Shown: positions 13,040-35,512 of the stretch, in pieces
Layout: each line of letters opens with the position of its first letter
How positions within the stretch are numbered: position 1 is the stretch's first letter
Virus record (IMG/VR): IMGVR_UViG_3300020581_000085
Location: 1-63,364 of that record
DNA length: 63,364 nucleotides
Direction: 5' to 3' (one strand)
Source: a virus
Taxonomy: Duplodnaviria; Caudoviricetes
Notes under the pieces: model-generated
What the model saw: the letters and a program-made list of their open reading frames with translations, nothing else
What the model was told of the DNA's origin: nothing
The model's database searches: none
Position numbers and translations under genes: made by a program

Positions 13040-13965
13040 TGCTGCACGAATATCTAAAGCAGACCCGCCGTTTTCTCCGTGACGCCAAGCAGGACATGCT
13101 CGAGGAGGAGGATGTCATTGAGCATATCAATGAGGCGCGTCGTGAAACCGCGATGCGAGCGCAGGCGATCCGGAGACTTACTCCGATCGCGGCCGGGCTA
13201 GTTTCTGCAAGCGTTACCTCGCCGGGCAGTGGATACACAAATCCAACCATAGTCATCTCTCCCCCGGATTTCCCCGATGGTCTTCCTGGATACCCAAATG
13301 GGCGTCAAGCAACGGCGCTTGCCACGCTACAAGGCGGACAAATATCCGCAGTAGACATTCAGGATGGCGGGGCGGGGTATCAAAACCCTCTCATGTCTAT
13401 CACTGACCCGACTGGCACCGGGGCTGTCGTGGTGCCCACGCCGGTCAAGTATAATCAGATAATTCAGGGGCAAGAAAAATATGACTGGGCAGACATAGAT
13501 ACGTCGATGTTTCCTGGGGTTGGCGCTGTGTTCTGGATCCAATCGGTTGGCGTTATCTATGCGAACTGGCGCTATGTACCTCAGTACTGCTCATTCACAA
13601 AGTACCAGGCAAAAATTCGCACCTACACTACAGCCTCGTACCAGTACGTGCCAGCTTTCTTCACTCAATACGGGCGTGGAGTGGACGGTTCTTTTTATAT
13701 GTATCCACCGCCGTCTCAGACATACCCAACTGAGTACGACTGCCTATGCCTGCCTATAAACTTAATCGACGACACGACTCCTGAGGCAATTCCTTCTCCG
13801 TGGACTGACGCGGTTAAATTCTACGCTGCGGCTATGTGTTACCTCGACCTGCAGAACGGAAATAAAGCGCGAGAGCACTTCGATCTGTATGATTCTTTCA
13901 TGCACAGGTATGGTGCCTACGCGATGCCCGGTCGTCAGATAAATCAGTATGGGCGTCCGTCGTAA
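13039..13965 (+). CDS. Head-tail adaptor/tail tubular A-like protein, paralog 2, with inserted GSGY domain
   Basis: Shares 'C.CLPINL.DDTTPEAIP..W.DAV..AA' with previous gene; 'INEARRE' N-terminal helix. Confidence 0.7.
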   Translation: MLHEYLKQTRRFLRDAKQDMLEEEDVIEHINEARRETAMRAQAIRRLTPIAAGLVSASVTSPGSGYTNPTIVISPPDFPDGLPGYPNGRQATALATLQGGQISAVDIQDGGAGYQNPLMSITDPTGTGAVVVPTPVKYNQIIQGQEKYDWADIDTSMFPGVGAVFWIQSVGVIYANWRYVPQYCSFTKYQAKIRTYTTASYQYVPAFFTQYGRGVDGSFYMYPPPSQTYPTEYDCLCLPINLIDDTTPEAIPSPWTDAVKFYAAAMCYLDLQNGNKAREHFDLYDSFMHRYGAYAMPGRQINQYGRPS

Positions 13966-15602
13966 TGGCTATCAAGGCCCAGCAGCCTGCCGCTCAAGGC
14001 GACCAGCCGTGGCAACCCACGATGCCTCCTCCGATGCTTATGGAGGAGTTTCAGGGTCTCTATACCTCCACGACTAGACCGGGAGTGAAGGACGAGGCGT
14101 GCTGGTGGATAGACGGCTATATCCCGCTCGGGCGTAATGATCTTCGCACGTTGCCGGGGACTGGTCCCGTAGTGTTCAGGGCGCCTACGGGGAAAACTAT
14201 TGCATTTTTTGATTTTACCAATATTGGACCCACGCCGTACTCGATTGTCATAGGAGCAACGGGAGAAATATACGCTGTTAACACCGATACCGGAGCGTTC
14301 TCAACGATTGCTCCTGCCGGGACAATTACGAACCCATCAAAGCAGAACGTGGGTATTTCCCAATACGGTAGTCAATATGTTCTCATCGTTGCAAAGCAAA
14401 CCAACGGATACTTTATCTGGGACGGGACTACGTTCTTTACGCCGGGTATGTCTTTCACCGGGGTTGGCGGCGGTACAATCCCAACCGGGATAGGCGGTAC
14501 TACCATCGAGACTTATGCTGGACGTATTTGGATCGGGAACGGAGCAACGATATTTTTTAGTGTCCCTGGATCTTTGACGGATTTCTCATCGGGAGATGGT
14601 GGTGGGAACTTCACCTCCAACGATAGCTTCTTGCGGGTTCAATATACGCAGCTAGTTCAAACCAACGGCTTCCTATATCTGATCGGAGATTCCTCGATCA
14701 ACTATATCTCCGGCGTTCAGACTTCTGCATCTCCTCCGGTCACGACGTTTACAAACCAGAATGCCGATCCTGAAGTTGGCACTCCATACTCTGCCTCTGT
14801 GACCGTAATTGGTAGAAATATTATCTTCGCAAACGCATGGGGAATTCACGTCAGCTACGGCGCGGCCGTAACCAAAATCAGCGAAGCTTGCGATGGGTTC
14901 TATACGTCAGTTCCTAATTTTGGCGGGCAGCAGTTAAGCGCAGCAAAATCCATCGTATACGGTAAGCGTCTTTGGTCTTTGCTATGTCCTGTGATTGATC
15001 AATTTACTGGCCAGCAGAGAAACAAGCTCATCACATGGAATAGCCAGTTGTGGTTTGTCTCGGAGCAGGATGTGGTTCTAACCTATATCCGGCATCAGGA
15101 AATCAACTCTGTGCTCACCGCATGGGGGACGGACGGGACCACGCTACGTAGGCTTTTCCAGAATCCGTCTACCGGGTTTACCAAGCGGGTGATGTCCAAG
15201 TTCTGGCGCAGCCAACTCGGCATTAACATGAAGGAAACCGCCAATCGGTTTTGGGCCTCCGCTCAGTATTATAATCTCTCCGATCCTAACGTTAACGTAT
15301 ACATCGAATCGGAGAATGCCGCTTCGTTTGGCGGCACAGCGCAAATCCAGCTCGTGCCAGGAACAACCAACGTGGAATGGACCACACTTGGTACGCAGGT
15401 GATGAACTGGACCACGATGGTTTTGGGAGTATCCACTCCTATGAAGTGGACAACCACAAATGCGGGCGGGATCGTGGTGTTTGATCCAAGATCGGTTGCC
15501 CAACAGGGGGTCTATTTAGGGTTTACGCTAGAGACCAACTCCGCTGACATGGCATGGATATCTGCTATGATAGGCAACGCTCTCTGGAATTATCGGGGAT
15601 AA
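13965..15602 (+). CDS. Tail nozzle/tubular B (P22 gp10-like) beta-rich protein
   Basis: Size, position after adaptors, beta-propeller-like composition ('YAGRIWI...FFS'). Confidence 0.65.
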   Translation: MAIKAQQPAAQGDQPWQPTMPPPMLMEEFQGLYTSTTRPGVKDEACWWIDGYIPLGRNDLRTLPGTGPVVFRAPTGKTIAFFDFTNIGPTPYSIVIGATGEIYAVNTDTGAFSTIAPAGTITNPSKQNVGISQYGSQYVLIVAKQTNGYFIWDGTTFFTPGMSFTGVGGGTIPTGIGGTTIETYAGRIWIGNGATIFFSVPGSLTDFSSGDGGGNFTSNDSFLRVQYTQLVQTNGFLYLIGDSSINYISGVQTSASPPVTTFTNQNADPEVGTPYSASVTVIGRNIIFANAWGIHVSYGAAVTKISEACDGFYTSVPNFGGQQLSAAKSIVYGKRLWSLLCPVIDQFTGQQRNKLITWNSQLWFVSEQDVVLTYIRHQEINSVLTAWGTDGTTLRRLFQNPSTGFTKRVMSKFWRSQLGINMKETANRFWASAQYYNLSDPNVNVYIESENAASFGGTAQIQLVPGTTNVEWTTLGTQVMNWTTMVLGVSTPMKWTTTNAGGIVVFDPRSVAQQGVYLGFTLETNSADMAWISAMIGNALWNYRG

Positions 15603-15603
15603 C

Positions 15604-16263
15604 ATGGCTCTGCCTACCGCATTTACGGGGAACGTCGCTCCTACCGGAGAAGAACTAGACGCCGATCTTGCGGCGCTTGGTGCTCTTACGCCAATTCCCT
15701 GCACGATAGCGGGCACAAACACAATCACCCTGACGCCAAACGCAAATACGCCAACTGTCGTAGCATACGCTCCATATACCCAATTCACCGGCATAGCCGC
15801 TGGCACCAACACGGGTCCGGTTACAGCTCAGGTTGGTTCTCTGGCATCTCTCAATGTCTATAAGGACACCATCAACGGCCCGGTTCAATTAAGCGGTAGT
15901 GAGATCGTCCTAAATACCAAACTCATCCTGATGTACGACCCAACCCTTAATACAGGAGCGGGAGGTTTCCATCTAGTCGGTACGGTTGCCTCAACCACTA
16001 GAGACCACACTACTACGGCATCGATTTCAATTACGGCTATCCCGCCGTTCACAGGATCGACGGCCACGGTTCTTCTCGCCGGTTCATCTATTGGCGATAT
16101 CGTATCGCTTGGATTCCCGTCCCTTGCATCGATAGGATTGTCTTGGCAGGGCTATGTCAATAATGCGGGGACGATCACATTGAACGTGTTCAACCTGTTC
16201 TCGCTAGCTACCGTCACTCCCAACGTCGGTGTCTATACCATCAACACTAGGGGTTTCACTTAA
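15604..16263 (+). CDS. Tail-associated structural protein
   Basis: Thr-rich beta-strand content; resembles N-terminal regions of tail fibres. Confidence 0.55.
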   Translation: MALPTAFTGNVAPTGEELDADLAALGALTPIPCTIAGTNTITLTPNANTPTVVAYAPYTQFTGIAAGTNTGPVTAQVGSLASLNVYKDTINGPVQLSGSEIVLNTKLILMYDPTLNTGAGGFHLVGTVASTTRDHTTTASISITAIPPFTGSTATVLLAGSSIGDIVSLGFPSLASIGLSWQGYVNNAGTITLNVFNLFSLATVTPNVGVYTINTRGFT

Positions 16264-19289: not shown

Positions 19290-21244
19290 TGGCCGACTCC
19301 GCTACCAGCGTAGCACCATCGACCTCCTCCGATATGTTCGGAGGATTGGACATGGACAAACTTGTCCGCCAATCCATGCCGTCCTCCAACGTAAACGAAC
19401 CTAAGATCATTGAGGGCATGAAAGCCGCGACGGCACAGGAAGCGCGCGATAAGGCCCCAGTCTATGACAAACTCATGCAGGCCGATAAGGAGAACCTTGA
19501 GCGGGTTCACAAGGCAGCGGACGGTATCCAGCCGGTCGAGTTGAAGGAATGGGATGCCAAGAAGGAATTAGCGAAAAACACTACCGACCCGATGGAAATA
19601 TTCGGATCGTTCGGGTTCATCGCTACGCAGTTGGCCTCCGCCTTCACCCGCATGCCGTTCGTGAACGGGCTTAACGCCGCGGCCGGTTTCATCAACGGAG
19701 TTCGTGAGCACGATCAGCAAGGGTATGAGAAAGCGTACGAGGCGTTCAAGACAAACACCGACATCGCAATCAAGCGCCACAACATCCAGCGCGAGGCTTA
19801 CGACGACGCCGCTAAGCGTTTCTCTACGGACCATAACGCATACGTTTCGGAATTGTCGGCCCTGAGCGACAAGTTCGGTGACAGGAGGACTCAGGTTCTA
19901 TTGGAAGGGGGGTACATCAAGGAACTGGAGGAGCTGCACCGGGCTAGAGAGAGTTCGGCGCGCGGCATGCTCCAGGCTATGCCTCAGATCGAGACGATGT
20001 ACGCCAAGAACCGCGCAGCGGATGAATTGCGCATCCAAGGCAAGAACGATATCGAGATTTACCACGAACTATATGCCCCGGCCTATTCTAACAACATCGG
20101 CAATTTCAAAGTCCAGATGATCAAGGAAAAGGCCAATGATATCGCCAAGTCTGAGGGGCGGGATTCCCCCAATAGCGATGACTGGAGCAAGGCTATCGCT
20201 AGTACAAATTCGTCCTTCAATCCTGGCAAAGGCAACAATGCAGCTGCCGCGGATGCTGATGAGGTAATCAAGAACCTCAATAGGGATGGCGTCAACCTTC
20301 CTCCTGAAATGAACGCCGTGATCCGCAATACCTTAGGGGATAAGGGCTCTAGCGCGGTATCCGGTGCTAGGAAATCAGCCCTTGTAAACGCCTTGGAGGA
20401 AATCCGCGCTCAGAAGGAAACCGGCGACAAGCCGATGGACAGCCAGAAGGCATCAAAGATCATCAACGATGCTTTGGAAGCCGCCAACTCGGGCAAGGTG
20501 AAGATAGACCAGGCGTTGGTCAACCAATTTCCCCAGTACGATGGGATGAATGCAAAGAAATTCGGCTATGTCGGGGTGAAGAACCAAGAGCGCATCATGA
20601 ATGCGATACAGAGTTCGGAGCAGATTGAGACTATCGCAAAGTATGCGGCCGAAAACCCCGAATCCATCGGCCTAGTCGCCGATGCGGCCAGAAAAATAAA
20701 CGTCGATGCGTATAAGGGGTTGATGACGAATCCAGCATCGTACATTACGAAAGTGACCACGGAACGGGATAGCGCGATTGATGCGGCAGCGAAGGAAAAG
20801 GGCCTGTCTCAGGATCAGGCCGCCAAGGCCAAGGTATTGAACAAGATGCTGGCTACGCAAGCCTTCGCCGACGCAGCTCAGGCTGGATCGCGAGGAGCAA
20901 CCATCTATCTCGACAAGGCATTCCGGGAGATTTACCAACAGGCATCGTCCCCGCCTGCGTTCTTCGACATTTTGCGGGTTCGCCAGCAGGATTCGGACAA
21001 TCTTCTGTCCAAATACGATATGTCACTCAAGGATCGTAAGGACGTGAAGGAAAAATTCCCGTTCTACCAAAGCCCCGAGTCGTTTCTGACCAAGGCCGTT
21101 ACGTCGAAGACTCCGGCTGTTCCGTCTGCGGCCCATCGGGAGGTCGGGAAGCCGTACAACACGTCCAAAGGCCAGTTGATTTGGGGCGGAAACGGAAATT
21201 GGTATACTGCGGAGGAATGGGCCCAACTTCACGGCGGTAACTGA
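19289..21244 (+). CDS. Internal virion/DNA ejection protein
   Basis: 651 aa, helical; synteny. Confidence 0.6.
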   Translation: MADSATSVAPSTSSDMFGGLDMDKLVRQSMPSSNVNEPKIIEGMKAATAQEARDKAPVYDKLMQADKENLERVHKAADGIQPVELKEWDAKKELAKNTTDPMEIFGSFGFIATQLASAFTRMPFVNGLNAAAGFINGVREHDQQGYEKAYEAFKTNTDIAIKRHNIQREAYDDAAKRFSTDHNAYVSELSALSDKFGDRRTQVLLEGGYIKELEELHRARESSARGMLQAMPQIETMYAKNRAADELRIQGKNDIEIYHELYAPAYSNNIGNFKVQMIKEKANDIAKSEGRDSPNSDDWSKAIASTNSSFNPGKGNNAAAADADEVIKNLNRDGVNLPPEMNAVIRNTLGDKGSSAVSGARKSALVNALEEIRAQKETGDKPMDSQKASKIINDALEAANSGKVKIDQALVNQFPQYDGMNAKKFGYVGVKNQERIMNAIQSSEQIETIAKYAAENPESIGLVADAARKINVDAYKGLMTNPASYITKVTTERDSAIDAAAKEKGLSQDQAAKAKVLNKMLATQAFADAAQAGSRGATIYLDKAFREIYQQASSPPAFFDILRVRQQDSDNLLSKYDMSLKDRKDVKEKFPFYQSPESFLTKAVTSKTPAVPSAAHREVGKPYNTSKGQLIWGGNGNWYTAEEWAQLHGGN

Positions 21245-22953
21245 TGCCAATTCCTGATTCCGAAGTTACCCAAGGTAGAGCCTCTGACGAGGCTGCGTTT
21301 ACGCCTCCGCCGTCCATGGCTCGCTCTGCTTCGGATTGGGCTACCTCGTTCATCCGAGGTCTTGCCAAGGGCACTGAGGGCATGGTTGGACTGCCAGGAG
21401 ACGCCGTTAATGCTCTGTCGCACGGCAGCAAGGTCGCATCTGACTATATCTCGGAAAAGATTGGGATTGATAAAGGTCCGGAGCCGTCAGGTCTGACTAT
21501 TCTCCCCAGTACCGAACAGGTTAACAAATTTGTCGGTGGAGATGAGAAACGACGGAATGCAATAGGCAAATTCACCGATGCCCAGCCTGAGACGCCGGGA
21601 GGAAAATACACTCAATCGATTGGCGAGATGGTCCCCGGAATGGTTGGTGGCCCCGGTGGATTGGTCCGTAAAGGCATTCAGGCTGTCGCTGGTGGTGTTG
21701 GAAGTGAGGCGGCTGGACAGGCCGCCAAAGAGTATATGCCCGACCACGAGACAGCGGCGCGAGTTCTAGGTGGCATTGCGGGGCAGGGTGTTCCTGGTGT
21801 TGTGCGAAAGGCCATCGCGCCGTCGAATATCAAGTCGGAACGGGAAGCGGCAGCCGAGTTCTTAAAGAAGGAAGGCGTAGACGTCACGGCTGGGGATCTG
21901 AGCGGTTCCAAGGTCACGAAGCATGCCGAGCATGCCTTGGGTACGTCTCCTGGGGCGGGCGGCGCGTATGACATCACCCGGGACAAGATCAACAAGCAGT
22001 TTACGTCGGCGGCTCTCAAGCATATTGGGGAGAAGGGCGAGGAATTATCGCCAGAGGTTCTTCGGGATGCTTCAAGGAAGATCGGTGGAGAATTTGACGG
22101 GTTAGCCGCTCGCAATTCGGTCAAACCGGATATGGCTTACGTCGCTGATGCCTTGAAGGCCCAGCAGAAATACGACGATTTGTTCCTGAATCCGCTGCAC
22201 AAGCCCTTGGTTGAGAAGATCGTCGAGCAGCAAATGAACAATGTTGCCAGAGGAGACATCAGCGGTAAGGCATATCAGGCCCAAGCATCGGCTTTGCGAG
22301 AAATCCAGAGGGGACATGGCGACCAGCGGGTCAGGGATTTTGCAGCCGACATGAAGGACGCGCTTGATGACGCGATGGAGCGCAGCATCAAGAAGAACAA
22401 TCCGGACGATCTTGGCAAATGGCAAGACGCGAGGAGAAAGTACCGCAATCTCTTGGTTCTCGAGCGGGTGGCGGCGGGTGGCGGGGAAGATGCTGCGGCG
22501 GGCGTCGTGTCAGCGCCGAGGCTAAGGCAGGCGATTGTCGCCGAGCAAGGTAGGCGTAGCTATGCTCGAGGTTATGGCGATTTTGATGAACTAGCACGTG
22601 CTGGAAACCTACTTTTGAGTAAACCCCCCACTTCCGGAACGTCGGAGAGGGCGTTTCTTCATGCTATCCCCGCGGCGATCGGAGGCGTTGCTGGTCATGC
22701 GCTAGAAGGTAATGTCGGTGGAGCCGCTGGAACTATGCTTGGCGTCATGGCCCCTGGTACTACCGGTAAGGCGCTTATGAACCCCGCCGTGCAGGGCTAT
22801 CTGAAGAACCAAATAGCGAAAAAACTTGGTGTGTCGGTTGAATATCTGGACAGCCTCAGGCCGGAGATGAGGGATAAGCTATTTCGCTCCACCCTTGCCG
22901 AGCACGGACGAGAGTCAACCGAACTTCCTCCGATCACGGTAGAGCCGGAATGA
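21244..22953 (+). CDS. Internal virion/DNA ejection protein
   Basis: 569 aa, helical with Gly-rich hydrophobic stretches, 'P.SGTSER'; synteny. Confidence 0.6.
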   Translation: MPIPDSEVTQGRASDEAAFTPPPSMARSASDWATSFIRGLAKGTEGMVGLPGDAVNALSHGSKVASDYISEKIGIDKGPEPSGLTILPSTEQVNKFVGGDEKRRNAIGKFTDAQPETPGGKYTQSIGEMVPGMVGGPGGLVRKGIQAVAGGVGSEAAGQAAKEYMPDHETAARVLGGIAGQGVPGVVRKAIAPSNIKSEREAAAEFLKKEGVDVTAGDLSGSKVTKHAEHALGTSPGAGGAYDITRDKINKQFTSAALKHIGEKGEELSPEVLRDASRKIGGEFDGLAARNSVKPDMAYVADALKAQQKYDDLFLNPLHKPLVEKIVEQQMNNVARGDISGKAYQAQASALREIQRGHGDQRVRDFAADMKDALDDAMERSIKKNNPDDLGKWQDARRKYRNLLVLERVAAGGGEDAAAGVVSAPRLRQAIVAEQGRRSYARGYGDFDELARAGNLLLSKPPTSGTSERAFLHAIPAAIGGVAGHALEGNVGGAAGTMLGVMAPGTTGKALMNPAVQGYLKNQIAKKLGVSVEYLDSLRPEMRDKLFRSTLAEHGRESTELPPITVEPE

Positions 22954-23198
22954 GCCTAGAATCTACCCTGACCGATCTAGCCGATCATTTGGCGGCAAAA
23001 GCCAAGACGGACACCTGTGACATTCAGGATGCGGTCAAGATATTCAAGGAGTTGCGTGAGTTCTATGCTATCTTGACCAAAGACGACGAAAAAGGCGATA
23101 AGGTTCCCGGCAGGCGACCCACCACTATTTCAGCGATGCGAGAGCGGATCGCGCTCGTCAGTGGTGGAGATGAAGATGGCGGAGACGACCCAGCCTAG
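22950..23198 (+). CDS. Hypothetical protein
   Basis: ATGA-coupled ORF. Confidence 0.6.
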   Translation: MSLESTLTDLADHLAAKAKTDTCDIQDAVKIFKELREFYAILTKDDEKGDKVPGRRPTTISAMRERIALVSGGDEDGGDDPA

Positions 23199-23478
23199 TC
23201 CGTTATTTCGCGTTGTCGGTCAAGAGCCTGACACCCCCCAAGCCAACCCCCAGCAGTATGCTCAGGCGATTGCTCTGATTCAGGTCGGACTTTCGACCGT
23301 TTGGCAGCAGTTTATCATCAGCTTAGCGCACTGGTTCACGATGCTTTCGACGGGCACCGTGTTCATCCTGTGCCTTTGGACGCCTGACCCCAACACACGT
23401 CAACTAATCATGTTGGGGGGGTACTCGTTGTTTATTCTAGCCGCGAATTATCTCGTCATATCGAGCCGACGCAAATGA
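23176..23478 (+). CDS. Two-TM membrane protein
   Basis: Hydrophobic helices, basic C-terminus 'SRRK'; directly precedes the signal-peptide gene block. Confidence 0.6.
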   Translation: MAETTQPSPLFRVVGQEPDTPQANPQQYAQAIALIQVGLSTVWQQFIISLAHWFTMLSTGTVFILCLWTPDPNTRQLIMLGGYSLFILAANYLVISSRRK

Positions 23479-25982
23479 TGAAGAAGATCGCAGGGGCACT
23501 ATTCGCACTTCTCATCGGGGCGCCGGCCTATGGGCAACAGGTCCAGCAGAGCGGAACAATAACCGCGCGTCATTTGCCAGCGTGGGTAGCCCCGGGCGTA
23601 ATTGGTGACGCTGGTACATCCGCCGATAGCCCCATTTCATCCATCGGAGCTACCGGCCAGATTTGTTCGAATTCCGCTCGAGTATCAAGTGGCGCATGGG
23701 CCTCTTTGTGCCTTCAGGCCAATACCAATTCGCCTTCGACCATCAGTTTGCAGAATAACGGCGCCTCCCCCAACGAAACGCTCCAATTCATCGTCAACGG
23801 AACCACGTTTCCGTTCCCGGGATCTCTAGCCAATATCACGATCGGGACGACGCCGGTTGTCGGTGGAACTAACAGCCTATGTCTATTCGTATCCGGAGGT
23901 TTTGTAGGTCAGCAGACATGCACGTTGTCGGCTATCACGTCTTTAACGGGAGACGGAACGGCTACTGGACCGGGGGCCTCAATATTCACCCTATCCACGG
24001 TTAATAGCAACACGGGTACGTTTGGGTCAGGGGCCCTCGTACCGATCATCACGGTAAACGGTAAGGGGCTTATTACGTCGGTATCTACCGCGTCTGTCGG
24101 TCTGACGGTCGGCTCCAGCACGATATCTTCTGGCGCCACCAACTCGATTCTTTATCAGAACGGAACGGTTTTAGGCGAACTCACCGTAGTTGGTAACGCT
24201 GTACTTAGCACCAATGTCAGTGGCGTTCCTTCGCTGTCGACCACGCTTCCATCAGGTTTGACCGTCCCCTCTCCTACGTTCACCGGAACGGAGACATTTC
24301 CCGATTCCGCTACATGGACCAGCACGGGAATTAGCAAAGTCGCCGCTCTATCTGTTGGAAGCGCGACCCTTCCTTCTGGTGGAAACGTATCCATAAGCGG
24401 GCAGTATCAGGTTAACGGTACGCAAATCGCCGCTAGCAACCTGAGTGACGGTAAAACCGGAACCGGATCGCTTGTCGGCGCTGTATCTCCGGCTATTTCC
24501 GGGACATGGACCGGATCTCCAACATTCTCCGGCAATATTACGTTTAGTGGGCAGTTGATCGAGACAGGAACCTCGCCGCCGTCATCTGCCGGCGGGCAGA
24601 GTTATATGATGGGAACGGTTGCCTCGCCCACACTTACAAATACCGGACAGCTTTCTCTCTACAACACGTTGGTCAACGGCGGCATTATTCAAGGTGACGG
24701 ATCAACCAACGACGTCAGTATTTTCAATAAAGGTGGCACTCTCGTTATGGGTGTCCCAACGGGAACGACAAAATTAAACTTACCATCCCTGTCGGTTGGC
24801 ACTTGCTCTTCTGGGTTAGCCTTGGATTCCGGCAATAATACTGTTCTTACATCCTGCCCGGGGTCATCCGCATCAATACAAGTAGGTACGACAACCATAG
24901 CTAGCGGAACGTCGGGGCGTATAGAATTCAATAACGCTGGTGTTCTGGGTGAGCTTATTATCGGAAATGGGCTGAGCAACGCTTCCGGCACCTTGATCTC
25001 TTCTATCCTCACCGAGCCGCAAGGCCGGATTACCCTGCAAGCCAATACGCCGGTGATGACCACATCGCAGTCGGCCCAGACTACTCTTCGCTACGATTGT
25101 TATACCGGCGGTGGTCAGATCCCATATTTCAATGGCACGATTGACCAAATCGACACGATCACGTCATGCGAGGTGACCGATGCCATGGTATCGGCTGCTA
25201 GCGCAGGTCAAGTTGTTAGCGCAAACGTATATGACGTTTGGTGGGTTCACTCCGGGACCAACCGAATTTGTTTAGCCATGTCGGCAAGTACTGGCGGAGG
25301 CGGCGGGTGGTCGGCTGATACTGGCGGTAGCAATACGGCCAGAGGTACCGGATATTCGCAGCTTGATCGCACCACGCGGCCCTACACTACCAATAAGAAC
25401 GCTATCGCGAATTGCTTCAACGGCGCGACGAACTATGGGTCCGTTAGTGCAAATCAGGCAACCTATCTAGGAACGGTATTCGCCTCGGCCAACGGCCAGA
25501 TCAGCTACACGTTCGGCGCGGCCGCCTCGGGCGGCACGGCAGCGCTCCTCGGCGTCTGGAATATGTATAATCGGGTAACGGTAACGACGACGGTCACCGA
25601 CAACGGTACTAGTTATTCGTACTCATCCGCCACCGTCCGGCAGGCACGAGCAAGTGCAGGAAATCAGATACAGTTTGTTCTTGGTGTCCAAGAGGATGGG
25701 GTTCAGTTTTCCTATGCAGCTAAAATGTTGATGTCCGCCACATCCCAGGCGTCAGCTTCTTGGGGTGTTGGGTTCGACGTGACTAACGCCTTTTCCATAG
25801 CCGCATCAAACTTTCAGTCGGGGTCTGCTACACAAGTCTCAAATGCCAGTTCCAACGCGGGAGTTTGGAGTGTGGGGGTTGGTCTACACACTCTAGCGGC
25901 CACGGAGTCAAGCGACGGATCAAACGGAAACGGATTTGATAGCGGAAGTTTAAATTCACTGATGGCATCAATCAGAATGTAG
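23475..25982 (+). CDS. Tail fibre-like protein with Sec-type signal peptide
   Basis: 'MMKKIAGALFALLIGAPAYG|Q'; S/T/G-rich repeats; C-terminal 'PQGRITL...PVMT...LGVWNMYNRV' fibre-like domain. Confidence 0.7.
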   Translation: MMKKIAGALFALLIGAPAYGQQVQQSGTITARHLPAWVAPGVIGDAGTSADSPISSIGATGQICSNSARVSSGAWASLCLQANTNSPSTISLQNNGASPNETLQFIVNGTTFPFPGSLANITIGTTPVVGGTNSLCLFVSGGFVGQQTCTLSAITSLTGDGTATGPGASIFTLSTVNSNTGTFGSGALVPIITVNGKGLITSVSTASVGLTVGSSTISSGATNSILYQNGTVLGELTVVGNAVLSTNVSGVPSLSTTLPSGLTVPSPTFTGTETFPDSATWTSTGISKVAALSVGSATLPSGGNVSISGQYQVNGTQIAASNLSDGKTGTGSLVGAVSPAISGTWTGSPTFSGNITFSGQLIETGTSPPSSAGGQSYMMGTVASPTLTNTGQLSLYNTLVNGGIIQGDGSTNDVSIFNKGGTLVMGVPTGTTKLNLPSLSVGTCSSGLALDSGNNTVLTSCPGSSASIQVGTTTIASGTSGRIEFNNAGVLGELIIGNGLSNASGTLISSILTEPQGRITLQANTPVMTTSQSAQTTLRYDCYTGGGQIPYFNGTIDQIDTITSCEVTDAMVSAASAGQVVSANVYDVWWVHSGTNRICLAMSASTGGGGGWSADTGGSNTARGTGYSQLDRTTRPYTTNKNAIANCFNGATNYGSVSANQATYLGTVFASANGQISYTFGAAASGGTAALLGVWNMYNRVTVTTTVTDNGTSYSYSSATVRQARASAGNQIQFVLGVQEDGVQFSYAAKMLMSATSQASASWGVGFDVTNAFSIAASNFQSGSATQVSNASSNAGVWSVGVGLHTLAATESSDGSNGNGFDSGSLNSLMASIRM

Positions 25983-25995
25983 AAAGATAGAGACG

Positions 25996-27975
25996 ATGAC
26001 AAAAAGCATAAAATATTTAGTTTTAGCGTTGGTCATCGCTATCTTTTTTGTACCAAAGCAGGCCAATGCTCAGGCGTCCGTAGCTCTATGGTGTTGGAAT
26101 CCATCCGGGTCACAAGCAACCAACAATCAATATACACCGTGCAACGCCTCTAATCCCCTCGTCGTTAGCGCGTCGGTCTCAGCATCAATCTCTGGCTTCC
26201 CTGGCGCGTCCCCAACGACTGGTACGCCTATCGCAGTAACTACTGGTGGGGTCACCGGCACCCTTCCAGCGGGATCTGTTGTGGTTGCCAGCAATGTGGG
26301 AACGACAAACACAGCGTATTGTAAGCTAGGTGCATCTGCCACAGTCAACGATCAACCCATATCTCCGAATGGAGGGTGGTTTGCATTCACCACGGGCGGG
26401 GCAACACAGTTAACCTGCATCACATCGACGTCTACCACTACCGTTAACATGGTTGGTGGTTCGGGTCTTCCAACTGGTTCTGGAGGCGGTGGAGGATCCG
26501 GCGGTGGAGGAGGAACTGTAACACAAGGACCAACGGGAACTAACGCGGCGGCATGGTGGGCACAAATTGGCGATACCACAAATGGTCCAGTAGCGGTAGG
26601 CACAGCAGGTGCTGATGCTGTTAGCAATACCCAAAATGGGCTGTCTACTTACAGCCGACTTGAATTGTATAATGGTACGACTTGGGATCGTTGGAAAGGA
26701 ACCAGCGGCGCTGCTAACATTGCTGGTACGGGAACAGCGGGCACAGCTGCCGGTGGAGTCTTGACCGTTCAAGGCGTAGCATCGATGACGCCTGTCCAAG
26801 TATCACAAGCAACAGCAGGTAATCTCAATGCGACTGTTGTTGGTACAGGCACATTTGTAACACAATCTGTTGTCACACAAGCGACAGGCACCAATTTGCA
26901 TGCTGTGCTTGATACGACATCAACTACAGCAGTTACACAAGCGACATCATCAAACCTGAAAGCCCAAGTTGATCCACTAACTGTTGCGACGTGGGGCCTT
27001 GCGGCGACAACTCAAAACGTAGCTGCCCCGACTAACGGCATGGTAGCTATGGGGCAGTTCAACACTAGCCCCACGACCATCACAACGGGGAACGTATCAC
27101 CCCTGCAAATGGATAATGCCGGCAACCTATTGGTGAACATTAAGGCTGGTGCTGGCTCTGGTGGTACGGCGATTGCCGACAATGCGGCATTCACGCAAAG
27201 CATAACGAACGAGACGCCGGTCGGCTGTCTGTTTATCACCTCTTATACCGCGGCAACCACCGGCCACTCGACAGTGATGCAGTGCGATTCGACCGGACAT
27301 CCTCTCGTCAATCCCGGCACGATCGGGTCATGGGGCCTGATGTCCGGTACGACTCCGGGGACCGCTCCAACCAATACACTAATTGCTGGGTTGATTTATA
27401 ACTCTGCGGCCCCGACGCCTTCCAGTGGACAAACTCTGCCATTTCAGGGCGATAGTTCTGGAAACCTAAAGGTGAACGTCCAAAGTGCTGTCGGGACCTC
27501 ACTTGGCACTGCCGTTTCTGGTATCACCGGATCGCCAATTCTTAATACCGCTTATAGCTCTGAGCCAACTAAATGCACCACGGCAGACACTTGCTGGACG
27601 ATGGTTGATCTTGTCGGCAAGACAGTCACGTCGCCTTACGCCAATCGCGAGAACTTCCTCAACTGCGCGGTGACGTTGACGGCCTCTACATCAGCAACAA
27701 CCTGCACAGGCATGGCCGCGCAAGGCGCCTCGGTCAAAATCTATGTCACCGATCTTCAGTGCATGAGAACTGATGCTGGCACTACGGCGTCAATCATGAC
27801 GTTGAACGATACGGCGACAACAATCCTCGTGCTGCCAAATAATGGTGGCGGCGGCGGGTTTGCCAAGACCTTCAACGTTCCCCTGCAAGTCGCAGCCAAT
27901 ACCGCATTCACGGTTCAATCCGGCACGTCTTTAACCAGCGTCTATTGCTCGGCATCTGGCTATAAGGGTTACTAA
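25996..27975 (+). CDS. Fibre-like protein with Sec-type signal peptide
   Basis: 'MTKSIKYLVLALVIAIFFVPKQANA|Q'; 'YNGTTWDRW', repeated 'VTQAT..NL.A' and 'PLQ.D..GNL.VN'. Confidence 0.7.
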   Translation: MTKSIKYLVLALVIAIFFVPKQANAQASVALWCWNPSGSQATNNQYTPCNASNPLVVSASVSASISGFPGASPTTGTPIAVTTGGVTGTLPAGSVVVASNVGTTNTAYCKLGASATVNDQPISPNGGWFAFTTGGATQLTCITSTSTTTVNMVGGSGLPTGSGGGGGSGGGGGTVTQGPTGTNAAAWWAQIGDTTNGPVAVGTAGADAVSNTQNGLSTYSRLELYNGTTWDRWKGTSGAANIAGTGTAGTAAGGVLTVQGVASMTPVQVSQATAGNLNATVVGTGTFVTQSVVTQATGTNLHAVLDTTSTTAVTQATSSNLKAQVDPLTVATWGLAATTQNVAAPTNGMVAMGQFNTSPTTITTGNVSPLQMDNAGNLLVNIKAGAGSGGTAIADNAAFTQSITNETPVGCLFITSYTAATTGHSTVMQCDSTGHPLVNPGTIGSWGLMSGTTPGTAPTNTLIAGLIYNSAAPTPSSGQTLPFQGDSSGNLKVNVQSAVGTSLGTAVSGITGSPILNTAYSSEPTKCTTADTCWTMVDLVGKTVTSPYANRENFLNCAVTLTASTSATTCTGMAAQGASVKIYVTDLQCMRTDAGTTASIMTLNDTATTILVLPNNGGGGGFAKTFNVPLQVAANTAFTVQSGTSLTSVYCSASGYKGY

Positions 27976-27978
27976 GCC

Positions 27979-28227
27979 ATGAAGTTTTTCTTCATGTTAG
28001 CGCTTCTATTTTTGTGGAACGGCAGTATTCTAAGCTGCCCGACCGCAACGATATCTAACGTGCCTAGTTCGATTGTGTCGGGTCTGCCTGCCTGCAACGC
28101 ATCAAGCAATGGACTGATCTACGAAATTACCGATGGTCTGACGCCTACAATTGGCGTGTTGGTCGTGGGTGGTGGCGCAGTGGCGTTGCTTGTTCACTGT
28201 AACGGTACTCAGTTTGTGGCGGGGTAA
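27979..28227 (+). CDS. Small Cys-containing protein with signal-like N-terminus
   Basis: 'MKFFFMLALLFLW'; 'LPACN...ITDG...V.GGG...VHCNGT' resembles a fibre-tip module. Confidence 0.6.
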   Translation: MKFFFMLALLFLWNGSILSCPTATISNVPSSIVSGLPACNASSNGLIYEITDGLTPTIGVLVVGGGAVALLVHCNGTQFVAG

Positions 28228-28228
28228 A

Positions 28229-29128
28229 ATGAAAAAGATATTTCCCCCCGCGATCCTCGCGTTGTTCCTGCTTGGGTGGTGTTCGTTTGCTATTGCGCCT
28301 GCTGCCTTCGCGCAGTCGAACATCGTCGGTGGAGGGATGTATGGGGATGTCAAGGCTAGTAGTGGCGGCGGCTGTTCACAGGCTACGACGCTTAACGCCA
28401 AGCTTGACGGCGGCCAAAATACCTCAGCGGTGACAACCGCTGTTTGCGGAATGGTCACGGATGGCGATTGGGCCAAGCTCGATTTTCTTTATGTCTTTGC
28501 CATCAATTCATCTGGCAACGCACTTCTGAATTGGGTCTCGACAAGCTTTAATGGAACGGTAGGCGGAACTGGCTGCACGTTCACTGCCAATGCAGGCTAT
28601 AATAATAGCAATTCTTCATGCTTTATTTCGACGGGATATATTCCATCTTCGTCTGGTGGCAACGCAACATTGAATAGTGCTACGGTTAGCGCGTGCCAGG
28701 AAACAAGCAATACAATAACCGCAGAGGGCTTCTATCTTGGAGCTGGCGATGCTTCAAATTCTACCTTACTAGGCCCTTTTTACGGCGGGATAACTCCTAC
28801 ATTCGCTGACATCAATGACGCCAACTTCACAAGCGCCGGAACTCCGACAAATGCGCAAGGAAGCTGGATATTAAGCCGAACTAGTTCATCGGCAACTACA
28901 CTATATCGAAACGGAACGTCGTTCTCTACCCCCGGGGGCACGAGCGGAGCATTGGTGACGGTTCAGCTTTATGTGATGGCACGAAACAATAACGGGACGG
29001 CGGACTCATTTACTCCAGCAGGGTCAATCTTTGGTTATGCCTTTGGGGGGTCTGGCAGCATCAATGCTGCGAATATCCGGGCAAGACTAAATACCTATAT
29101 GACGGCGGTGGGAGCGAGTGGGTGCTAA
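28229..29128 (+). CDS. Beta-sandwich/lectin-like protein with signal peptide
   Basis: 'MKKIFPPAILALFLLGWCSFAIAPAAFA|Q'; 'DGDWAKLDFLYVFA', 'TLYRNG'. Confidence 0.65.
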   Translation: MKKIFPPAILALFLLGWCSFAIAPAAFAQSNIVGGGMYGDVKASSGGGCSQATTLNAKLDGGQNTSAVTTAVCGMVTDGDWAKLDFLYVFAINSSGNALLNWVSTSFNGTVGGTGCTFTANAGYNNSNSSCFISTGYIPSSSGGNATLNSATVSACQETSNTITAEGFYLGAGDASNSTLLGPFYGGITPTFADINDANFTSAGTPTNAQGSWILSRTSSSATTLYRNGTSFSTPGGTSGALVTVQLYVMARNNNGTADSFTPAGSIFGYAFGGSGSINAANIRARLNTYMTAVGASGC

Positions 29129-31482
29129 AGAGAACAATCCTCGCTCTTATGACTTTTATTGTTTTTTCACCGGCCAGTCTCGCGGCAGGGCTTGGAACTC
29201 TTCCGTATAGCGGTGCTTCGCAATCCGTCTCGAATAATTGGGTTCCTCAAAAGATCGGTGCGGGCGGGAAACTAACCAGCATCGATATCGCGCCGGATGG
29301 AACCAAAGTTGTCCGCGCTGATACTTACGGAGCGTGGTGGTTCAACCCAGCGACGACAAACTGCGGCAACGCCAATACGACGGGGTGCTGGCAGCAGCTA
29401 GTCACTCTCAACACGATGCCGTCATCCGATCTGACCATTGGCGGCGGCCTTGGCAGCGGCGTAAGTGCACAGGGCGTCCTCGAAATTGTAGTCGCGCCGA
29501 ATAATACGTCCGTCTTCTATATGCTGTTCAATGGCTACGTCTATGTAACCGCCAACCATGGAGCGTCGTGGACCAGGACCGGATTCACTCAAACATTGAG
29601 CGGCGGCAACCCGCCGCAAGCAAACGGCAGTGTTAATGGAAAGAAAAAATTCATTGCTGTTGATCCTAATAATTCCAACATCGTCTACGCCTCCACGATC
29701 TTCAACGAATTGAGAGTATCGACTAACGGCGGCACATCATTCTCAACCACACCCAACGTTGGAAATGCCGGATCAAGCTTTGGCCACGCTATCGCATTTG
29801 ACCCCAGCTCGTCCGTCGTTGGCTCTACGTGTTCCACGCCGGGAAACTGCACCACGCAGGGCATCTACGTTTTCACCTACGGCGCGCAGATGTGGCATTC
29901 CACCAATGGTGGCACGTCGTTCACGCAGACCTCGGGCGGACCTACGACGTTTCAGGACATGAGGGTTGGATCTGACGGGACCGTCTGGGTAGTTGATGGT
30001 CAAAGCACTGCAAGCAGTTTGTGGAAATTTTCGTCAGGGACATGGACGAATATTGCGTCTTTTAGTGGGATGCTCGGTCTTCAGTCTGTTGCAGTCGATC
30101 CGGCAAATTCATCTCGTATTTTTGTCACTGATTTCTGCGGCGACACTAGTCTATCTACCAACAAAGGAACTTCATGGTCGGCGACGGCTAGCCTTCCAGT
30201 TACCCGCACGGCGACGGATATGCCATGGTTAGCGTGGACCGATGAAGGAACGTCAAACGCATGCTTCACAACTGGCGCGGTCATGTTCGACCCAAACCAA
30301 AGTAATGTGGTCTACACTTCAGAGGGGGTCGGCGTCTGGTTCGCATCTCCTACCGGCTCAAGTCCTGTCAGCTATACATCACAATCAGCAGCTATCGAAC
30401 AACTGGTTACCAATCGGGTGATTGTACCGCCAAGCGGGACGCTGAACTATTTTGCTTGGGATCGCCCCGAGTTTTATCTCCCCAACAACACGACCTATGA
30501 TTCGACGCACAACCCGAATAATACGAACGGCATCGTTGGCGGTTGGGATGGCGACTGGTGTTCGTCATCAACCACTACACTAGTCGGTTTGATGACATCT
30601 AATGCGTCATCGGCAGATGTCTCCGGCTCATCGTCGAACGGTGGCCAGACGTGGACGGCATTCGGGACTTTCCCCGATATTAATGCTGGTGGCAGCATTG
30701 CTTGCTCGACCCCTTCCGACATCATCAGAGTTGCCGGGCTGACTACTAGCGCGGCATATTTTACATCTAATGGGGGATCGACGTGGACCAAGATTACCTT
30801 CCCGTCTCCCATCCCTACCACCGGCGATCTTGGTTGGAATAACGATTTCGGCTCACTCGGTAACAGCCACCGTTTCGCGGCTGATCGCGTTAATTCAACT
30901 ACCTTTTACGCTTATAATACCAGCACCGCAGGCGTTGGCCTTTACATAAGCACCGACGGTGGCTCTACATGGGCCCAACAATTTTCAGGGTCCATTACCG
31001 GCCTTGGCGAAAGTGCAGACCAGCAGGGGAAACTAGCAACTGTGCCGGGACAGGCTGGAAATCTATTCTGGAATAGTGTGATTAGCCCTTGTAACAGTGG
31101 AGACTGCTTTGTGCGGTCTACTAATTCGGGTGTTTCTTGGAGCGTCGTTAATACCGGATTCAGTTTGGTTTGTTCCTACGGCTTCGGCGCTATATTCTCT
31201 GGGCAATCCTATCCTTCCATTTTGGTGTTTGGTGTTCGATCAGGCGTCTATGGCATTTGGGAGTCGAAAGACGACGCTGTGACTTGGACAAACGTCACCG
31301 GTAATTATTACTCCGGGGATGTTCCGACCGATATTGATGGCGACAAATCAACGCCCGGTCTGTGGTACATTGGCCAGCAGGGTTCGGGGCTGATCAAGGG
31401 CCAAGTTAATTGGCTACTAAAGCGCGACCTCGATCCGGCATCTAACGACAACGATCCGTTATGGCTGGAGAAGGCGGCGTAG
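29122..31482 (+). CDS. BNR/Asp-box beta-propeller protein, GH74 (xyloglucanase)-like, with signal peptide
   Basis: 'IGAGG', 'RADTYGAW' (GH74-like R.D.GG.Y region), many S-x-D/N-G-G-x-S/T-W/F boxes, 'WDR'. Confidence 0.75.
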   Translation: MLKRTILALMTFIVFSPASLAAGLGTLPYSGASQSVSNNWVPQKIGAGGKLTSIDIAPDGTKVVRADTYGAWWFNPATTNCGNANTTGCWQQLVTLNTMPSSDLTIGGGLGSGVSAQGVLEIVVAPNNTSVFYMLFNGYVYVTANHGASWTRTGFTQTLSGGNPPQANGSVNGKKKFIAVDPNNSNIVYASTIFNELRVSTNGGTSFSTTPNVGNAGSSFGHAIAFDPSSSVVGSTCSTPGNCTTQGIYVFTYGAQMWHSTNGGTSFTQTSGGPTTFQDMRVGSDGTVWVVDGQSTASSLWKFSSGTWTNIASFSGMLGLQSVAVDPANSSRIFVTDFCGDTSLSTNKGTSWSATASLPVTRTATDMPWLAWTDEGTSNACFTTGAVMFDPNQSNVVYTSEGVGVWFASPTGSSPVSYTSQSAAIEQLVTNRVIVPPSGTLNYFAWDRPEFYLPNNTTYDSTHNPNNTNGIVGGWDGDWCSSSTTTLVGLMTSNASSADVSGSSSNGGQTWTAFGTFPDINAGGSIACSTPSDIIRVAGLTTSAAYFTSNGGSTWTKITFPSPIPTTGDLGWNNDFGSLGNSHRFAADRVNSTTFYAYNTSTAGVGLYISTDGGSTWAQQFSGSITGLGESADQQGKLATVPGQAGNLFWNSVISPCNSGDCFVRSTNSGVSWSVVNTGFSLVCSYGFGAIFSGQSYPSILVFGVRSGVYGIWESKDDAVTWTNVTGNYYSGDVPTDIDGDKSTPGLWYIGQQGSGLIKGQVNWLLKRDLDPASNDNDPLWLEKAA

Positions 31483-34194: not shown

Positions 34195-35217
34195 TCACCT
34201 AACCGGCTTCCGCAATCCCATGCGAACAGCTTGGACGTTCGCGATCTTGTTCGCGACGTTGCGGTCATACTTCCGCGTTTGCGCGATGTCGCTGTGGGTT
34301 GCGGCTTCCCTAACGTGCTCGATCTCGGCGCCAGCGTCTCTCGCCTCGCTGATACCGCCGGCCCGCGAATCCTGGTTCCGTACGTTCTTTGGAACTCCGG
34401 CCATGTCAGCGAGAAGCCGCCATTTCCGGCGGAAGTCATCGGCGTGATACGGCAATCCGGTGGATTCGCTGATGACCAGCGGTCCAGATGCCGGAAGTAA
34501 TTCACGGTGAACCGTGACGACTTTCGTCTCGGTATCCTCGATGACCAGCGTTTCCCACCACCGCGGATCTAACTCTTCCAGCACCATGATAGCCATCTTC
34601 AGGTCGACCACCAATATTTTCTGTTTTTTGCTGGTGACGTGATGCAGCATCAGGTTTTCGTCGATCTCTTCCCACCGGAGCCCGCGTATCCACTTCTCTT
34701 TCTCGGTCACAACATCGGAGATGCCAGGTTCGGCATGCGGGATATACTCTCCAATTACGTCTTTCTGCCTGAGAATTAGTTCAAATTGCAGAGCTTGAGC
34801 CAAGGCTATGCTGTAGCGGAACTGACTTCTGGCGACCCGTCGAACGGCAATGGCATGTTCGGCGGTAATAACCGACGTCCGCGGCTCGCACTGTGGAACC
34901 TTCAGTTTGTTGAGAACTAAACAAAGCCGCTCGCATTCCTCATCCTCGAGGAGCGTAAGGCCGAACCCGGCCAAGGTCCGTAAGATACCAATCAGGGCAT
35001 GAGCAATGGCAACCTTATTCTCGGGGCCGAGCCAGTCCATGTGCCATTCTTTGGCGGTGACGTACCGGATGTCCTTAAGCTCGAAATGACCATAAAGCCG
35101 GTCGATCCTGGCGAGCATCGACGCCTGCCACTTGCGGTTATGATAGCGAAGCTTGTGGAACGACGAGACTTTGTGCGTCTGGTACGCCTCGATCAGGTCT
35201 TTGAGGGTTCTACTCAT
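34195..35217 (-). CDS. int: Tyrosine recombinase/integrase
   Basis: R ('LILRQKD'), K ('TSKK'), xxxR ('QDSR'), H ('ATHS'), Y ('TRKYDR'). Confidence 0.85.
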   Translation of the reverse strand: MSRTLKDLIEAYQTHKVSSFHKLRYHNRKWQASMLARIDRLYGHFELKDIRYVTAKEWHMDWLGPENKVAIAHALIGILRTLAGFGLTLLEDEECERLCLVLNKLKVPQCEPRTSVITAEHAIAVRRVARSQFRYSIALAQALQFELILRQKDVIGEYIPHAEPGISDVVTEKEKWIRGLRWEEIDENLMLHHVTSKKQKILVVDLKMAIMVLEELDPRWWETLVIEDTETKVVTVHRELLPASGPLVISESTGLPYHADDFRRKWRLLADMAGVPKNVRNQDSRAGGISEARDAGAEIEHVREAATHSDIAQTRKYDRNVANKIANVQAVRMGLRKPVR

Positions 35218-35218
35218 A

Positions 35219-35512
35219 CTATTTCACCGGCTTTATCTTCTGCTGGAGGCGAAGGGTAAACTGCCGATAGACCTTCATCGGGAGGTTTTCCAAGGCCTCG
35301 TTGAGGGTGGCTATATCGTTGGCGTCCAGCCCCTCGATATTCCATGCCGTAGGCTGGGCTGGCGCGGCCTGTGGTGCTGGCGGCGGAGGAGGGGTGGGTG
35401 TTGGGGCCGGAGCGGACTGAGCCTCACTGGCGGGCTTCTCTGCTTGCTGGGGGGCATCCTCGGCAAATGCCGGGGTGGCTAGTAGGACGGCGATAATAGC
35501 TAATTTCTTCAA
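35219..35512 (-). CDS. Small exported Pro-rich protein
   Basis: Signal peptide 'MKKLAIIAVLLATPAFA|E'. Confidence 0.65.
   Translation of the reverse strand: MKKLAIIAVLLATPAFAEDAPQQAEKPASEAQSAPAPTPTPPPPPAPQAAPAQPTAWNIEGLDANDIATLNEALENLPMKVYRQFTLRLQQKIKPVK

Follow-up and report, generated by a model that had tools for sequence, protein, structure and literature searches.

Predicted export leaders and paired cysteines in a conserved block of fibre-region genes of an uncultured temperate phage

We analysed the IMG/VR virus record IMGVR_UViG_3300020581_000085, one contig of 63,364 bases, hereafter the window; the window is the entire record and holds the whole genome of a temperate podovirus-like phage. 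Five consecutive genes of its fibre region (23475-31482, called A to E below) open with signal-peptide-like sequences, a feature that a sequence-only reading of the same DNA had pointed out and that was recovered at each of the five starts. Judged from the sequences of its relatives, such a leader is a trait of a large uncultured phage group, conserved far beyond chance, and the same data argue strongly for export through the general secretory (Sec) pathway, cleavage of the leader and disulfide formation in the periplasm. The explanation that we prefer is that the block is the distal host-recognition set of the phage, its five proteins being routed through Sec and its fibres being attached to virions at lysis. 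Taken as a whole, we give this explanation just short of an even chance.

The five genes come straight after the ejection genes and a small membrane gene, with no gaps, are packed or overlapping, and end with E, which closes the rightward late block. Gene A (23475-25982, + strand) encodes 835 amino acids (aa) and opens with the leader MMKKIAGALFALLIGAPAYG (aa 1-20, nucleotides 23475-23534), followed by Q. Gene B (25996-27975, +) encodes 659 aa, its leader MTKSIKYLVLALVIAIFFVPKQANA (aa 1-25, nucleotides 25996-26070) being again followed by Q. Gene C (27979-28227, +) encodes only 82 aa, and its leader MKFFFMLALLFLWNGSILS runs into Cys20. Gene D (28229-29128, +) encodes 299 aa with the leader MKKIFPPAILALFLLGWCSFAIAPAAFA (aa 1-28, nucleotides 28229-28312) before Q; its ATG lies one base past the stop of C, and an in-frame TTG is found further upstream. 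Gene E (29122-31482, +) encodes 786 aa from a GTG start preceded by GGGAG, and its leader MLKRTILALMTFIVFSPASLA (aa 1-21, nucleotides 29122-29184) is followed by A.

Leaders were called using a home-made heuristic, based on the n-, h- and c-regions and on the residues at positions -3 and -1, together with reading by eye. On this basis A, B, D and E look like substrates of Sec and signal peptidase I, with a basic n-region, a hydrophobic core (12-14 residues in A, B and E, about 22 in D, longer than the usual 7-15 or so) and small residues at -3 and -1. The AxA or AxG site that had been assigned to four of the leaders was retrieved in A, B and D; the site of E is SxA. In lipoproteins a lipobox of consensus [LVI][ASTVI][GAS]C stands at the end of the hydrophobic core. 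Gene C carries a candidate, I-L-S-C20, in which by eye -3 and -1 fit and the Leu at -2 is atypical. Signals of the twin-arginine translocation (Tat) pathway are recognised by the motif S/T-R-R-x-F-L-K in the n-region; by eye, no twin arginine precedes the core in any of the five leaders.

The heuristic was run on 98 greedily chosen open reading frames (ORFs) of at least 60 aa, among which C was masked by a longer overlapping frame. It flagged six of them, namely A, B, D, E, 35219-35512 (-) and 51542-52240 (-), and none of the head, portal, adaptor, nozzle or ejection genes. The first of the two frames outside the block encodes a 97-aa Ala/Pro/Gln-rich protein and adjoins the integrase, the second encodes a 232-aa protein beside the lysis genes, and neither gave a family match. 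Separately, an internal start in 59620-60036 gives MTELSRRSLITGLVSLVAAPAIVRA, by eye a Tat-like twin-arginine leader on a small protein.

Conservation of the leaders was followed in database relatives detected at E <= 1e-3, 128 for A (among 8,000 candidates scored) and 697 for B. In 73 aligned relatives of A, position -3 is Ala in 67 and V, T or S otherwise, position -1 is always small (73/73; Ala 52 times, Gly 21 times), and position +1 is Gln in 69/73. The mean pairwise identity is 0.38 within the leader vs 0.55 over the next 30 residues. The same holds for 79 relatives of B, with Ala at -3 in 63/79, Ala, Gly or Ser at -1 in 77/79 and Gln at +1 in 75/79, for a mean pairwise identity of 0.29 in the leader. 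These alignments indicate that the leaders drift and yet keep -3, -1 and +1, as expected from purifying selection as substrates of signal peptidase I.

The leader is also ubiquitous among relatives. It was detected in 42 of the 43 A matches bearing the N-terminal motif, the remaining one being truncated, and 105 of the best 120 B matches were flagged as leader-bearing, the other 15 being mostly fragments or proteins with extra N-terminal residues. A scan of viral contigs with the single A sequence gave no matches; a scan with the A alignment did find loci, and 18 of these viral loci, together with genome G001, were compared. All 14 related loci whose A-type gene has an intact start encode the leader; L022 has stops in the leader region, and four further loci match only later parts of the protein. 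Finally, a profile of the leader plus the N-domain retrieved, after clustering at 50% identity, 1,759 clusters, of which 1,110 reach E <= 1e-10 and 335 reach E <= 1e-30. Among its best 150 matches, 135 were new representatives, of which 132 were flagged as leader-bearing, and 2 of the 3 unflagged ones have a leader behind a mis-called start. The idea that the leaders reflect chance or an artefact of gene calling can hardly be credited: the predictor is home-made, E starts with GTG and D has an in-frame TTG upstream, but four of the few ORFs flagged genome-wide are adjacent here, and hundreds of independent metagenomic relatives have kept the leaders.

The many closely spaced Cys pairs noted earlier in these proteins were borne out by measurement. 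Mature A-E contain 42 Cys in 2,543 residues (1.65%) vs 47 in 5,979 (0.79%) for the other 18 structural-module proteins of the window (Fisher p = 6e-4), and the two large ejection proteins contain none. Mature A, B, D and E have 10, 12, 6 and 11 Cys, respectively, those of A and B lying all in the mature part, and short spacings of 15, 13, 17 and 23 in A, of 16, 32, 19, 6 and 13 in B and of 8, 6 and 5 in E were recorded. Protein C has Cys at positions 20, 39 and 74, so that a lipidated Cys20 would leave two to pair.

Cysteines and leaders go together among relatives. Among the 120 A matches listed, the median is 10 Cys in the 89 flagged as leader-bearing, all of which have at least one, and 1 in the 31 unflagged ones (Mann-Whitney p = 4e-10), the unflagged group including at least 6 Cys-rich N-terminal fragments of the same family. 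Leader-bearing relatives typically have about 8-10 Cys, with counts ranging from 4 to 20, and leaderless ones 0-1. An even number of Cys in the mature protein was counted in 81/89 A matches, in 102/105 B matches and in 124/132 new representatives, and in 40/59 relatives of E. Little or no variation is seen at C64/C79 and C136/C149 in A or at C109/C141 in B. Homologous domains do occur in cultured phages, in the tail spike of Pseudanabaena phage Pam5, in a 304-aa protein of Microcystis phage Mwe-JY13 and in a 260-aa protein of Flavobacterium phage elemo, in each case with neither a leader nor Cys; when the window proteins were aligned to them, no Cys of the window fell on a Cys. This agrees with the earlier statement that tailed-phage fibres normally lack signal peptides. 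Paired Cys that occur only in company with a leader are what folding in the oxidising periplasm would be expected to give. Export with oxidative folding, as the sequence-only reading had proposed, is strongly supported by the conserved -3, -1 and +1 positions, the kept leaders, the even Cys counts and the near Cys-free leaderless relatives.

The products A and B have the conserved N-terminal part, the exchanged C-terminal modules and the knob folds of fibre or receptor-binding proteins. Searches of Pfam, NCBIfam and PHROGs gave no match for A, B or C, and PDB sequence searches gave no meaningful match for A, B or D. Protein A consists of the leader, a conserved N-domain starting with Q-QVQQSGTIT..H.P.WV, a fibre-like shaft and a C-terminal knob (aa ~698-835). 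Its relatives have the first ~500 residues in common, after which the C-terminal modules diverge (Gly_rich_2, Collar and, in G001, a weak Peptidase_S74). The AlphaFold2 (AF2) model of A, of moderate confidence (mean predicted local distance difference test, pLDDT, 62.8), gives 232 BFVD matches at E <= 1e-3, annotated tail fibres among them. Its knob is a TNF/C1q-like jelly roll with Z scores of 13.2 to the PLTL lectin, 9.3 to the tip of Bdellovibrio Bd2734, 9.1 to the short fibre of cyanophage A-1(L) and 8.9 to PRD1 P5, and aa 506-814 have 35% identity to the Pam5 tail spike. In protein B the leader is followed by a short loop with Cys, a conserved beta domain (aa ~70-160), a linker rich in Gly and a C-terminal jelly roll (aa ~550-659); its AF2 model has a pLDDT of 63.9 overall and above 90 for aa 80-160, and Foldseek relates the jelly roll to the Sf6/HS1 needle knob, to TNF-like lectins, to the Bd2133 fibre and to virus jelly rolls. 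A and B are thus modular fibre-like proteins, probably trimeric, and gene order together with the fibre-like architecture favours a role as virion fibres for both.

The surroundings of these genes are conserved as well. The gene with two transmembrane helices that had been described in front of the block is real: it is located at 23161-23478 (+), encodes ~100 aa, overlaps the start of A in ATGA and is conserved directly upstream in G001, L014, L022, L027 and L028, ending in L022 likewise just before the A-like gene. In the C-terminal part of its product two hydrophobic helices flank a conserved P-D-P turn, the end being RR or RK, and an alignment of five sequences (window, G001, L014, L027 and L028) has 15 invariant columns. 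Size, the two helices (topology by eye) and the basic C-terminus would fit a class II holin, a small protein with both termini inside that is encoded with the endolysin; the endolysin-like gene, however, lies ~29 kb away. The product could be a final ejection protein, a protein of the holin kind or a factor connected with the exported block. In G001 the homologue of the membrane gene heads a row of leader-bearing genes: a B-like one, one whose product matches the phrog_5939 'tail protein' family (1.7e-33), one for a beta-helix protein with an insertion of GH141 type, and one for an A-type fibre of 1,012 aa; the lysis genes come next. In L025-L028 the membrane gene is followed by 6-7 consecutive leader-bearing genes, including B-like and D-like ones, and in L023 a leader-bearing A-type fibre gene lies between the gene for the 308-aa tail protein and the nozzle-like gene, a place taken in L009 by a large beta-helix-like gene with, by eye, only a possible hydrophobic leader. 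His-rich leader-bearing proteins (MKYLFSVLIFFALFSSAEA then GHRHYKH...) were also seen near the end of the late region in L017 (14239-14916), L031 (4027-4623) and L013 (17152-17904).

Just upstream of the A-type fibre gene, L018, L025-L028 and, by eye, G001 encode a leaderless, Cys-free protein of 160-162 aa, located at 9995-10477 in L018 and 9992-10480 in L025-L028, and at ~11012-11533 in L013. Right after its Met it opens with the ~28 residues of the mature fibre (VQQSGN.TPGH.P.WV..GVIGDGG) and then diverges completely. The window has no such short leaderless gene, tblastn finding only the N-terminus of A itself, and an Atlas search with the 162-aa paralogue, which is leaderless, produced leads at chance level only (Mtd_N, T4 gp9/10, score 0.80). 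The database representative P0382 resembles a fusion of the short protein and the fibre N-domain. The shared motif is extreme N-terminal in both proteins only if the leader of the fibre is removed. In the short protein the motif would work from a free N-terminus, and since that protein is leaderless, the partner of the motif should be reachable from the cytoplasm.

This motif bears on the possibility that the N-terminal segments are retained as hydrophobic helices, holding the fibres at the cytoplasmic side of the membrane before assembly, fitting into a socket in the tail or aiding membrane penetration upon infection. The AF2 models do have N-terminal helices (2-14 in A, 2-17 in B), the hydrophobic stretch of D is long, the gene just ahead always encodes a small membrane protein, and cleavage is a prediction from sequence. 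Yet the predicted mature N-terminus is exactly where the leaderless paralogues start, conservation of the leader is confined to the positions of the peptidase site, the n-regions are basic, the cores of A, B and E are short for a membrane span, and the even-numbered conserved Cys argue for an oxidising compartment. We regard retention as improbable.

In the explanation that we prefer, the five genes would be expressed late, in one operon with the ejection proteins. The unfolded chains would cross the inner membrane through the host Sec machinery; signal peptidase I would cut after A-x-A/G to leave an N-terminal Gln, and C would be cut by signal peptidase II. Paired Cys would be oxidised in the periplasm, giving disulfide-stapled fibres, and the heads and tail cores, leaderless and Cys-poor, would assemble in the cytoplasm. 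Once holin and endolysin breach the envelope the two pools would mix, and the free mature N-terminus of the A-type fibres (QxVQQSG.VT..H.P.WV..GVIGD.G) would dock on the tail. The enzyme E, a putative GH74-like beta-glucan hydrolase, and the lectin D would mostly remain free and act on the host glucan matrix. The shared N-terminal motif and the gene order lead us to favour attachment of A-type fibres at lysis. This last step is one that we infer only; that fibres join virions at lysis, which we favour over free or displayed roles, has at best an even chance and perhaps slightly less.

Sequence features make C a probable lipoprotein, a small one; its C-terminal 44 aa have 39% identity (E = 5e-6 to 1e-5) to the end of a leader-bearing protein of 485-502 aa in L025-L027. 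Protein D matches phrog_26223 (1.7e-10) and also phrog_18498. Its nearest clusters in an Atlas search are 90-100% viral, and a ConA-like/Laminin_G_3 cluster superposes with a template modelling (TM) score of 0.74, and D is read as a concanavalin-A-like lectin/glucanase-type protein. Leader-bearing homologues of D are found in L025, L026 and L028 (37-38% identity), and a homologue with neither leader nor Cys in Microcystis phage Mwe-JY13; the domain recurs in proteins annotated 'YapH' of Sinorhizobium and Flavobacterium phages. Protein E matches PF15902 (Sortilin-Vps10/BNR) at 3.4e-11, above the cut-off, as well as 6p2m over aa 116-760 (E = 9.1e-33) and, among further GH74 entries that include xyloglucanases at ~1e-11, 5fkq, 4lgn and 7kn8 (about 1e-11 to 3e-8). 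It is predicted to be a GH74-like double beta-propeller, the two seven-bladed propellers following from the full-length similarity. Relatives of E lie mostly on large bacterial contigs (e.g. Bradyrhizobium, 40% identity), and only 1 of 50,697 phage records gave a match.

Such folds raise the question whether the block serves the virion at all. Its products could be exported non-virion proteins, released by lysis, passed through the outer membrane (e.g. by type II secretion) or displayed on the cell, the virion using a leaderless binder such as the product of 15604-16263. They would then clear or bind a glucan or extracellular polysaccharide (EPS) matrix, cover receptors on debris and so spare the progeny from being trapped, or serve as adhesins in the manner of the mosaic adhesive trimer (MAT) fibres of Bdellovibrio bacteriovorus. 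The GH74-like fold of E with its mostly cellular relatives, the lectin/glucanase-type domain of D and the leaderless candidate binder in the tail core all speak for this. So does a survey of carbohydrate-active enzymes (CAZymes) of prophages, which predicts signal peptides for 5% of them (3,261/64,678; PMC13507307). E is comparable to these enzymes, since it resembles glycoside hydrolases, carries a leader and belongs to a temperate phage; the survey differs in that tail fibres and other structural proteins were removed and leaders are described neither on fibres nor on whole modules (PMC13507307).

The closest analogue that we found is the MAT system. Bdellovibrio exports 21 trimers resembling phage fibres; each has a signal peptide and, directly after it, a conserved N-domain of ~130 aa rich in beta structure, then a shaft like that of phage tail fibres and adhesive tips that are swapped, in some cases with an S74 chaperone (PMC10769870). 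The likeness extends to the weak S74 match in the relative G001, to the A tip, which resembles Bd2734, and to the B tip, which resembles Bd2133, a resemblance that also counts for a non-virion role. MAT fibres differ in being encoded by a cellular predator and acting on its surface or vesicle (PMC10769870), whereas A and B belong to the late operon of a tailed phage. By analogy A and B match the MAT architecture, the N-domains being compared by description; this points to a MAT-like way of working, not to family membership. Weighing against a non-virion role are the conserved anchor with swapped tips of A and B across all the clusters retrieved, the fibre gene of L023 inside the run of tail-core genes, and the extreme N-terminal motif common to leaderless cytoplasmic proteins. 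Moreover, translational coupling links the block to the late structural operon, a promoter and terminator scan gave 14 promoter-like sites vs 11.9 +/- 3.5 expected from shuffles, thus no enrichment, and no other long fibre or spike gene was found in the window. On balance we consider a purely non-virion role rather unlikely.

Several points weigh against attachment of exported fibres at lysis. We looked for a precedent for post-lysis attachment and found none, and such joining must fit the short interval between membrane breach and dilution. If the leaderless product of 15604-16263 were the essential receptor binder, as its sequence and place could allow, the block would be dispensable for infectivity. 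The leaders and cleavage sites are predictions of the home-made heuristic and of reading by eye, and the parity statistics count related sequences, so that the p-values overstate their independence. A leaderless 814-aa pectate-lyase/beta-helix spike of L025-L028 carries 14 Cys (L026 6430-8874); it stands among leader-bearing neighbours, so that the link between Cys richness and a leader is not a strict one. A role as a free enzyme suits E better, as one as a free lectin perhaps does D. The relatives of E are mainly cellular, with a leader flagged in 57 of the 120 listed, and by sequence E may be a captured secreted cellular enzyme unrelated to the virion. Lastly, searches of 401 Acetobacteraceae genomes with the head protein and the B profile yielded no host.

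We also compared the block with known virion and fibre-region proteins. In the full-text literature covered (open-licence papers and bioRxiv) no report of signal peptides on tailed-phage fibres was found, which is not proof of absence. Filamentous phages provide virion proteins, pIII and pVIII, that use host export and form disulfides in the periplasm, as we propose for the block; their virions are extruded through the envelope without lysis, unlike here, where an HK97-type head, a portal, ejection proteins and an endolysin are encoded. The Lom/Bor-type morons of phage lambda are single small genes with their own promoters in the tail-fibre region. They too are exported proteins encoded beside fibre genes, and they differ from the block, in which five large coupled genes all have leaders and two have a full fibre architecture. 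Ordinary podovirus tail fibres and spikes are exemplified by T7 gp17 and P22 gp9. With such proteins, and with the Pam5 tail spike, A and B have in common that they lie behind the ejection genes and combine a conserved N-terminal anchor with a variable C-terminus and trimeric knob folds. The known ones differ in being leaderless and folding in the cytoplasm, the Pam5 spike having no Cys. A figure legend gives the P22 tailspike as having no signal peptide (bioRxiv 10.64898/2026.09.13.751334). Like the morons, WceF of Pantoea is exported; it is reported to have a tailspike-like fold that works in the envelope (PMC7949094).

The rest of the genome is that of a tailed phage whose known relatives are all uncultured. 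The head protein (10077-11123) belongs to phrog_9953, the PHROG 'major head protein' family, and is followed by an SU10-type adaptor (12461-13039, +; PF24175 SU10_adaptor, 4.6e-11). Synteny in relatives identifies a 308-aa tail protein (13039-13965, +), a nozzle-like 545-aa protein (13965-15602, +) and the leaderless 219-aa protein already mentioned (15604-16263, +), whose N-terminal half is conserved and C-terminal half variable and which is a possible needle or receptor binder. From the adaptor to this protein (12461-16263) extends the leaderless tail core on which the fibres would have to dock. Further on are a DNA-ejection protein (21244-22953; phrog_26400, 3.4e-29), the integrase (34195-35217, -), an endolysin-like gene with a peptidoglycan-binding domain (52867-53763, -) and a single tRNA gene, tRNA-Asn (GTT), at 57935-58009. 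A membrane-containing virion was considered and rejected, given the head protein of the 'major head protein' family, the SU10-type adaptor and the ordinary ejection proteins; it is also disfavoured by the lack of leader-bearing structural genes elsewhere.

Among the 50,697 phage records, the nearest phages by head protein are two spring-water metagenome phages (33% identity), and A and B gave only partial-domain matches, with no cultured relative found. IMG/VR relatives of 62-67 kb exist, and G001 is complete with terminal repeats. One relative of the head protein lies on a 15-kb contig binned with an Acetobacteraceae metagenome-assembled genome (MAG). In the Acetobacteraceae genomes, the head protein matched 1/401, which is that same MAG, and the B profile matched 2/401 weakly and in its C-terminal part only; for this reason no host is named.

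Directly upstream of the terminase-like gene lies a sugar cluster (519-3312), contiguous across the record ends with 60910-62307. It comprises a sugar N-acetyltransferase of the NeuD/PglB/VioB family (519-1205; TIGR03570, 161.2 bits vs a cut-off of 160.8), a DegT/DnrJ/EryC1 aminotransferase (1202-2314; 9e-77) and an NAD-dependent epimerase/dehydratase (2311-3312; 2e-37); close by is a tetratricopeptide repeat (TPR) protein with a weak, sub-threshold GT9-like end (60910-62307). An epimerase-type gene is present in the relative L017 too. Homology of these genes suggests a 4-acetamido-4,6-dideoxyhexose pathway, which might serve glycosylation of the Ser/Thr/Asn-rich exported fibres or conversion of the host surface.

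The sugar trio and the TPR protein, encoded beside structural genes, would also suit dual targeting, in which a cytoplasmic or uncleaved fraction builds virions and an exported fraction serves exclusion, matrix clearing or glycosylation. Dual targeting would reconcile cytoplasmic tail assembly with real leaders. It is purely speculative, however; the Cys of the cytoplasmic fraction would stay reduced, yet they are conserved in pairs, and by eye no second in-frame start follows the leader in A or B. We find it quite improbable. Returning to assembly from two compartments, a fuller version would have the fibres Sec-exported, Gln-trimmed, disulfide-stapled, possibly glycosylated with 4-acetamido-4,6-dideoxyhexose from the phage's own gene trio, and joined to virions when the holin opens the inner membrane, the small membrane protein being a docking or release factor. 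This version is conceivable, and we hold it only tentatively, its chance lying clearly below even.

Textbook assembly of tailed phages is wholly cytoplasmic. If the block served outside the virion, a phage exporting a whole set of fibre-like adhesins together with a glucanase late in infection would represent a novel means of manipulating the cell surface or matrix, and phage fibres would be linked with the MAT fibres that predatory bacteria export. If instead fibres do mature in the periplasm, pipelines that read a signal peptide as the mark of a 'moron' or auxiliary gene would mislabel host-range determinants, and fibre production for engineering or diagnostics would need periplasmic or oxidising expression. 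The group would then be a natural source of disulfide-stabilised binding modules, probably acid- and protease-tolerant, and, across at least 1,759 clusters, late assembly of the phage could depend on the host Sec and Dsb systems and on the lysis step.

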